A stretch of DNA of 7,938 nucleotides from Escherichia coli (GTDB lineage Bacteria > Pseudomonadota > Gammaproteobacteria > Enterobacterales > Enterobacteriaceae). The stretch lies in assembly GCF_003334335.1 (NCBI RefSeq), contig NZ_QOWQ01000070.1. One strand, 5' to 3'. The position numbers and the translations under genes were made by a program. Position 1 is the first letter of the stretch. The number at the start of each line of letters is the position of its first letter. The notes under the pieces are model-generated. The model had not been told where the DNA came from, searched no databases, and worked only from the letters and a program-made list of their open reading frames with translations. This document shows, in pieces, positions 3,772 to 4,161 of this stretch.

Positions 3772-3990
3772 ATCCTCACCCCGATGTACACGGATGGTGC
3801 AATATGTTTGAAAAGATCGGAGTCTACGGGGTAGTTTTGACAGCACACGTTGTTCTCAACGGCGCTAAAAAAACATACACATTAAAAATGTGGGTAATTA
3901 TTTTGAAAGAAAGTCATATATAAAATAATAATACGAGAAATGTTTTCATATTTAGTGTACTGTATACGGCCATTTATACAGGAAAAGCCT

Positions 3991-4161
3991 ATGTCAGAAC
4001 GTAAAAACTCAAAATCACGCCGTAATTATCTCGTTAAATGTTCCTGCCCAAACTGCACCCAAGAGTCAGAACACAGTTTTTCAAGAGTACAAAAAGGTGC
4101 CCTTTTGATCTGCCCTCATTGCAACAAAGTATTCCAGACAAATCTTAAAGCTGTAGCCTGA
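3991..4161 (+). CDS. ynfU: Small zinc-ribbon protein (56 aa), possibly YnfU-like
   Basis: The ATG at 3991 has AGGAAA 6 nt upstream, whereas the ORF-track start at 3940 has no SD. The product MSERKNSKSRRNYLVKCSCPNCTQESEHSFSRVQKGALLICPHCNKVFQTNLKAVA has two CxxC pairs (CPNC, CPHC). The symbol is from memory of K-12 small proteins and is uncertain. Confidence 0.55.
   Translation: MSERKNSKSRRNYLVKCSCPNCTQESEHSFSRVQKGALLICPHCNKVFQTNLKAVA

Follow-up and report, generated by a model that had tools for sequence, protein, structure and literature searches.

The inverted repeat upstream of ynfU in a Qin-type prophage is probably incidental to a conserved promoter-like module

Introduction

Accessory genes known as morons occur in the Q-to-S interval of lambdoid phages; stx of the Stx phages and genes of the bor/lom type are examples. 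A leader of the RF01766 type (cspA thermoregulator) is expected for cold-inducible csp genes. Both of these bear on the small gene studied here, which a prophage carries between its Q and holin genes, with csp genes as neighbours.

The gene has already been described. Ribosome profiling with stalled initiation complexes revealed ynfU, an SPA tag confirmed it, and YnfU-SPA was the most abundant among the new proteins found in that study (Weaver et al. 2019). The same authors pointed out the pair of CPxC zinc knuckles in YnfU and its location in Qin, and the protein was well expressed at 37 °C (Weaver et al. 2019). ynfU was detected again by PIRT-seq. Papers that appeared after Weaver et al. (2019) repeat the remark on the zinc motif and add nothing further on YnfU, and no function is reported for the protein in the literature examined.

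We analysed a stretch of 7,938 nucleotides of Escherichia coli DNA (assembly GCF_003334335.1, contig NZ_QOWQ01000070.1), referred to here as the window, for which an inverted repeat close to the start of a small zinc-ribbon gene had been proposed as a regulatory element. The following features of the window are needed to describe the locus:

3556-3771, minus strand: essQ, holin gene and first late lysis gene, divergent from ynfU
3991-4161, plus strand: ynfU (b4776) coding sequence, from the RefSeq annotation in MG1655, family models and the published translation
4224-4243, unstranded: GC-rich hairpin in the interval separating ynfU from the convergent cspB; as an intrinsic terminator it is good on the minus strand (for cspB) and weak on the plus strand
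4525-4740, minus strand: cspB, convergent neighbour of ynfU, with a cspA-type 5' UTR at 4741-4901 (RF01766)
5041-5253, plus strand: cspF, third member of the recurring ynfU-cspB-cspF module, from annotation
5546-5644, minus strand: pR'-like late promoter and tR' hairpin, downstream of the Q gene ydfT, from sequence inspection

Results

The window gene is ynfU

Of 5426 complete E. coli genomes, 1651 match the 411 bases around the feature, almost always at 99% identity or higher, and each match carries the annotation "ynfU: putative zinc-binding protein YnfU". The window open reading frame is ynfU, the small zinc-ribbon gene that was already known. Its product has 56 amino acids with the zinc knuckles CPNC (residues 19-22) and CPHC (residues 41-44), and it matches the family profile above the curated threshold over the full length: the Pfam YnfU model (PF23499) at E = 3.9e-31 over residues 1-49 and the NCBIfam model NF038384 at 79.4 bits, compared to a cut-off of 36, over residues 1-51. 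As in the rest of the family, the two CPxC knuckles enclose the conserved segment SEHSF.R.QKG, and C19, P20, C22, C41, P42 and C44, together with S26-E27-H28-S29, were invariant or nearly so in 22 homologues. Zinc binding is predicted from this motif. The original prediction had named the gene product a zinc-ribbon small protein, which agrees with both family models and with the SPA-tagged protein (Weaver et al. 2019).

Translation from the ATG at 3991, which had also been predicted, is borne out by ribosome profiling (Weaver et al. 2019) and by PIRT-seq. The alignment of homologues is consistent with this start, since 1-nt indels and indels of 2-3 nt break the reading frame upstream of the ATG. 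A 73-aa extended reading frame from an ATG at 3940, which is annotated in phage HannyBb, was considered and rejected because of these frame-breaking indels and because the MSERK start is common to all homologues.

Several searches were conducted with the protein. The AlphaFold model of YnfU has a zinc-ribbon-like topology (pLDDT 69.8). The best matches in a sequence profile search of the PDB had E values of 0.02 or worse, PADLOC returned nothing for YnfU, and none of its PHROGs matches has a known function. When 1.84 billion cluster-representative proteins were searched with a profile, only 40 small relatives and no domain fusions were found.

ynfU lies antisense to the predicted late transcript

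In MG1655, the region of the window is the Qin cryptic prophage, with the gene order stfQ, nohA, ynfO, ydfO, gnsB, ynfN, ynfR, ynfQ, cspI, rzpQ/rzoQ, rrrQ, ydfR, essQ and, from essQ on, ynfU, cspB, cspF, ynfS, ydfT (Q), ydfU and rem. Lysis is encoded on the minus strand, by essQ, ydfR, rrrQ and rzpQ. The pR'-like promoter at 5644-5615 (minus strand) has a lambda-like AACGAT element and is composed of TTTGCA, 18 nt and TAAAAT, and then TCAACGATGGG, which resembles the region of lambda pR' that is transcribed first and induces the pause. On the same strand, a strong tR' hairpin with a 10-bp stem lies at 5569-5546. Rfam gave only weak isrK-like matches (E about 5) at the pR'-like region.

Gene order and the pR'-like promoter both uphold the claim that ynfU is on the strand opposite the lysis genes and antisense to the late transcript. 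This transcript would run through cspF (antisense), cspB (sense), the terminator at 4243-4224 and ynfU (antisense) and then reach essQ. The order Q (minus), ynfU (plus), holin (minus) is also found in phage HannyBb and in Klebsiella phage ST13-OXA48phi12.4, and inducible phages share this layout. The further proposal, that late transcription would collide with ynfU expression, is a fair reading of this gene order and is plausible in an induced intact phage. Such a collision would require polymerase modified by Q to pass the cspB terminator (4243-4224), and its relevance in the defective Qin prophage is doubtful.

Located between Q/pR' and the holin gene, with what appears to be a promoter of its own and with a terminator hairpin at 4224-4243, ynfU has the features of a moron. 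In some strains, among them E. coli EH01-18-04-A (L078) and strain 405, an IS200C element (tnpA) is inserted in the ynfU-cspB intergenic region.

ynfU is associated with cold-shock genes

Homologous loci were collected from 71 species across the Enterobacteriaceae, one locus per species, and phage loci were added. A csp gene is found within about 1.3 kb of ynfU in 51 of the 71 species-level loci, and the commonest arrangement is ynfU (plus), a cspB-like gene (minus) and a cspF-like gene (plus). An EssQ-like holin adjoins ynfU in only three. When the flanking open reading frames were clustered without bias, csp genes and a YnfN-like protein were the only recurrent real neighbours. The YnfN-like gene is near ynfU in at least 22 loci, often divergently oriented with a spacer of about 148 nt. 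In two Citrobacter loci (L006 and L008), gnsB, cspI and ynfU are contiguous with no lysis genes, and L008 has cspB- and cspF-like genes directly after them. The association between ynfU and prophage cold-shock genes is a new observation from this comparison of loci. It suggests that ynfU is part of a cassette of cold-shock-related accessory genes around the lysis module of Qin-type prophages.

The window carries an intact 76-aa ynfN open reading frame (MKKIIVFFNS...) at 1139-1369 on the minus strand, with a run of T at about 1346-1353. The run has one T fewer in MG1655, where the annotated YnfN has 51 aa, and for this reason the shorter protein appears to be what is left of the gene after a frameshift. 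At least 22 other loci have the 76-aa form conserved over its whole length. The window therefore comes from a strain other than MG1655.

A promoter-like module is conserved upstream of ynfU

The region from -95 to +6 was aligned for 72 distinct ynfU upstream regions. As a whole, this region is strikingly conserved across the 72 sequences, and the inverted repeat is not. The features upstream of the gene are as follows:

3903-3932, plus strand: alternative distal promoter-like site, TTGAAA, 18 nt, AATAAT; 10 of 12 matches in a consensus scan, Escherichia-specific
3924-3940, plus strand: island 1, an A-tract (possible UP-like element) and a weak putative -35, from the 72-sequence alignment
3958-3963, plus strand: predicted -10 hexamer TACTGT (family pattern TAnnGT), from the 72-sequence alignment
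3960-3966, plus strand: left arm of the inverted repeat, CTGTATA, overlapping the predicted -10 hexamer and discriminator; not conserved as a pairing partner
3970-3972, plus strand: predicted transcription start zone, from the distance to the -10 and the nearly invariant CC at 3970-3971
3975-3981, plus strand: right arm of the inverted repeat, TATACAG, overlapping the first two bases of the Shine-Dalgarno core
3980-3983, plus strand: Shine-Dalgarno core AGGA, 7 nt 5' of the ATG, conserved in 72 homologues

Island 1 with its flank reads as an A-tract followed by C-R-A-G-C-W-A-T (about 3924-3941), in which A3930 is invariant and G3937 nearly so. In the information profile, island 2 is TG-TAnnGT at 3956-3963. 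The pattern TAnnnT begins at one and the same alignment column in all 72 sequences, and the invariant bases T3958, A3959 and T3963 occupy hexamer positions 1, 2 and 6, which are the dominant positions of the sigma-70 -10 hexamer. The weak -35 is GAGAAA in the window and G/A-A-G-C-W-A in the family, exactly 17 bp from the -10. G3937 lies 21 nt 5' of T3958, the same distance as that between the G of TTGACA and the first T of the -10 when the spacer is 17 bp. No alignment gaps occur from G3937 to T3958 in any of the 72 sequences, while indels are present further downstream. These features suggest a compact promoter used throughout the family with a start near 3970-3972.

In one locus only, that of Yokenella regensburgei (L066, 2756-3001), ynfU is about 32 nt behind a cspF-like gene on the same strand, which looks like an operon arrangement. 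Both conserved islands are missing there and CAGGAG is kept, as expected of islands that act as a promoter and not in translation. There is no conservation 5' of the A-tract, where several loci have GC-rich hairpins. The one in Klebsiella phage ST13-OXA48phi12.4 (CCACCT..AGGTGG, L002 2909-2935) follows a run of A, abuts the ynfU A-tract and is terminator-like on the minus strand, between ynfU and the holin gene; similar hairpins are present in L048 and L067.

Three points count against this promoter. First, it is weak by consensus, with two of six positions matching in the proposed -35 and a G at position 5 of the -10, yet YnfU-SPA exceeded all other newly found proteins in abundance. Second, a plain sigma-70 promoter leaves unexplained the TG 5' of the -10 at 3956-3957, which is not in the usual extended -10 register, and the CC at 3970-3971, all of which are invariant or nearly so in the 72 homologues. 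Third, Escherichia has a better-looking distal site (10 of 12 positions) that could give rise to additional, longer transcripts and, if used, would put the whole repeat into the mRNA.

The cspF promoter region of the window (4975-5020, plus strand) has an A-tract, TAGCT, 16 nt and GTG-TATAGT, followed by GCGCCAAGTTATCAG, and most cspF-like genes in the loci keep the -10 TATAGT. A promoter family common to cspF and ynfU (A-tract, AGCT, 16-17 nt, TG-TAT(A/G)GT) was tried by searching the ynfU promoter profile against 34 cspF upstream regions, and it was not retained, as the best match had E = 0.1.

The inverted repeat is ordinary and is not conserved

The perfect 7-bp inverted repeat with an 8-nt spacer is present exactly where it had been reported, with CTGTATA (3960-3966) and TATACAG (3975-3981) perfectly complementary and 8 nt apart. 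The right arm had also been said to overlap the Shine-Dalgarno sequence. This holds for A3980 and G3981, which are two of the four AGGA bases, and it does not hold for the rest of the core; among the 72 homologues, A3983 does not vary and G3981 and G3982 hardly do.

The chance expectation was estimated with dinucleotide shuffles of the 144-nt essQ-ynfU spacer, which is 29% GC. At least one perfect 7-bp repeat with a loop of 3-12 nt was found in 16% of the shuffle trials (P = 0.16). A 7-bp repeat ending no more than 15 nt from the ATG was found in 1.8% of them, although this criterion was picked after the repeat had been seen. The repeat is no commoner than expected by chance in an AT-rich spacer and is not statistically unusual.

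The repeat is absent from 70 of the 72 homologous upstream regions. Across the alignment, the seven proposed pairs are formed in 37.7% of the cells compared to 41.4% in column shuffles, and the observed percentage was reached in each of the 500 shuffles. More pairing (50-52%) was obtained when the partner was shifted by one or two columns. When the arms were compared sequence by sequence, all seven pairs formed in the window sequence only and most others had one to four; L005, L023, L060 and L074 had six of seven with G-U pairs allowed. Two of the seven column pairs, 67/89 and 69/87, form in 53-60 of the 72 sequences because both sides are conserved for other reasons. RNAalifold found no shared structure in the alignment of the 72 sequences (0 pairs), and the longest perfect repeat in the region from -50 to -1 averaged 4.35 nt compared to 4.37 nt in shuffles. 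Thus, judging from the aligned sequences, the repeat appears to be confined to the Escherichia allele, where it would be composed of two conserved elements and AT-rich filler.

The explanation we favor, with a probability of about 0.7, is that the repeat is incidental and lies on a conserved promoter and Shine-Dalgarno site. ynfU would be an accessory gene with transcription of its own, located in the interval from the Q antiterminator/pR' region to the holin gene. Its transcription would be driven by the A-tract at 3924-3933, the -35 at 3935-3940, a 17-bp spacer and the -10 TACTGT at 3958-3963, and would start near 3970-3972. The resulting leader of about 20 nt is predicted to be essentially unstructured (3970-4030 folds at -1.5 kcal/mol, z = +1.2), leaving AGGA exposed, which would fit the relatively high reported level of YnfU. 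The left arm would be built on the -10 hexamer and the right arm on the conserved CAG leading into the Shine-Dalgarno core, and the remaining TATA/TATA pairs would be what an AT-rich spacer supplies by chance. The left arm probably lies upstream of the predicted transcription start, so that a transcript from the conserved promoter would leave it out and could not form the hairpin. A caveat is that a function specific to one lineage would be compatible with the absence of conservation.

Alternative explanations for the repeat

The repeat had been proposed to act as an operator or as a hairpin occluding the ribosome-binding site. Neither role is supported, given that 70 of the 72 homologues do not have the repeat and that its left arm falls on the invariant -10 hexamer. 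The hairpin is the alternative that survives better, although we regard it as unlikely. Under this explanation, ynfU of Escherichia would be transcribed mainly from the distal site, starting near 3939-3941, and a hairpin in the 5' UTR would partly mask the ribosome-binding site and make translation damped or temperature-sensitive, like a weak RNA thermometer. Whether both arms are in the transcript depends on the promoter: the left arm would be outside it with the conserved -10 and inside it with the distal, Escherichia-only site. The distal site matches 10 of 12 consensus positions, and the hairpin is the minimum-energy fold of 3956-3985 (-6.4 kcal/mol, z = -2.0 alone) and persists when 3940-4010 is folded. 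Temperature control would also be biologically sensible for a gene among cold-shock genes. However, the 71-nt leader as a whole is about as stable as its shuffles (z = -0.94), and the hairpin would pair just A3980 and G3981, two of the four AGGA bases, which argues against a hidden ribosome-binding site. The pairing frequency of 37.7%, below both the shuffled and the slid controls, indicates neither conservation nor covariation of the hairpin in the 72 homologues. The distal site itself is not conserved in other genera. Even within Escherichia, strain S88 of E. coli and Escherichia sp. E1V33 already have TTAAAA as the -35 of this site, and in E1V33 the closing pair of the hairpin is broken as well. 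Finally, the good expression of YnfU at 37 °C counts against this explanation.

Less probable still is an operator. The palindrome would bind a dimeric repressor specific to Qin-type Escherichia prophages, which would cover the stretch from the -10 region to about +10 and shut ynfU off under some condition. Under the conserved promoter, the repeat (3960-3981) would span roughly -11 to +11, the classic position for repression, and its left half, TACTGTATA, resembles a LexA half-site. The spacing is wrong for LexA, with CTGT-N14-ACAG instead of the required CTGT-N8-ACAG, and a LexA box was rejected on this ground; no LexA-spaced site with up to one mismatch was found anywhere near ynfU. The homologues show no dyad symmetry at the orthologous site and no excess of palindromes. 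The ordinary statistics of the repeat also argue against an operator, and no candidate for the repressor was identified.

The weakest alternative, which we consider very improbable, is that the conserved ynfU leader is a cold-box-like element akin to the cspA 5' UTR and that the repeat is part of a Csp-responsive RNA element: csp genes are linked to ynfU in most loci, and the best match of the ynfU leader profile upstream of cspA is a segment starting with the cold box's 3' end (ACAGACCATTAAAGCAG vs gcagtCCattaaatcaG), but this match is worth 1.8 bits with E = 0.09 in only 520 nt. The matching segment would stand right at the 5' end of the predicted RNA and excludes the repeat, and in a search of all loci the profile picked up no csp 5' UTR at E < 2. 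The Rfam model RF01766 matches cspB (158.8 bits, window 4509-4901, minus strand) and cspI (112.8 bits, 1614-1999, minus strand) in the window and leaves ynfU unmatched even at E values up to 10, and no cold box was matched at ynfU. The resemblance is striking by eye, and profile search, Rfam and nhmmer all failed to support it.

Discussion

A possible cold-related role for YnfU

The gene, its translation and its zinc motif have already been published, and the inverted repeat is unsupported as a regulatory element. Therefore, the locus matters little in the form in which it was first proposed. Of modest value is the testable model of promoter and leader, a 75-nt module with several invariant positions in front of a small protein of unknown function.

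The linkage to csp genes is the only lead to the function of YnfU, and it points to growth and RNA metabolism at low temperature as the area in which to look for a phenotype. We tentatively propose that lambdoid prophages spread a mobile cassette for cold adaptation (gnsB, ynfN, cspI, ynfU, cspB and cspF) among the Enterobacteriaceae and that YnfU is a functional member of it, with nucleic-acid or Csp binding and a shared regulator. We hold this proposal, and any cold-related role for YnfU, to be possible but rather unlikely. If it is true, one may speculate that the basic N-terminus and zinc ribbon of YnfU bind nucleic acid or a Csp protein, and that the conserved 75-nt promoter and leader (TG-TAnnGT, CC, CAGGA) is the target of a shared regulator beyond a plain sigma-70 promoter.

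Comparison with known systems

The repeat is similar to the hairpins and thermometers that sequester ribosome-binding sites (ROSE, fourU and the cspA 5' UTR) in having a short AU-rich stem that touches the Shine-Dalgarno sequence and in its cold-shock neighbourhood. Unlike these elements, it pairs two of the four core bases, shows neither conservation nor covariation, and has a left arm that is probably upstream of the start site. CTGTATA and TATACAG both match the halves of the LexA (SOS) box, TACTGTATATATATACAGTA. However, the halves are 6 bp too far apart in the ynfU repeat (N14 vs N8) and the site is not conserved.

Like the lambdoid morons of the Q-to-S interval, ynfU is a small accessory gene that lies between the late promoter and the lysis cassette and has a terminator hairpin and, apparently, its own promoter. 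In contrast to them, it is opposite to the late transcript, so that it would receive no Q-dependent boost by read-through and would be transcribed antisense instead, and it moves in a csp/ynfN cassette that is also found without lysis genes nearby. The closest match of all is the YnfU family (b4776, PF23499, NF038384): many E. coli genomes have exactly this nucleotide sequence in their ynfU region, nothing sets the window gene apart, and it is ynfU itself.
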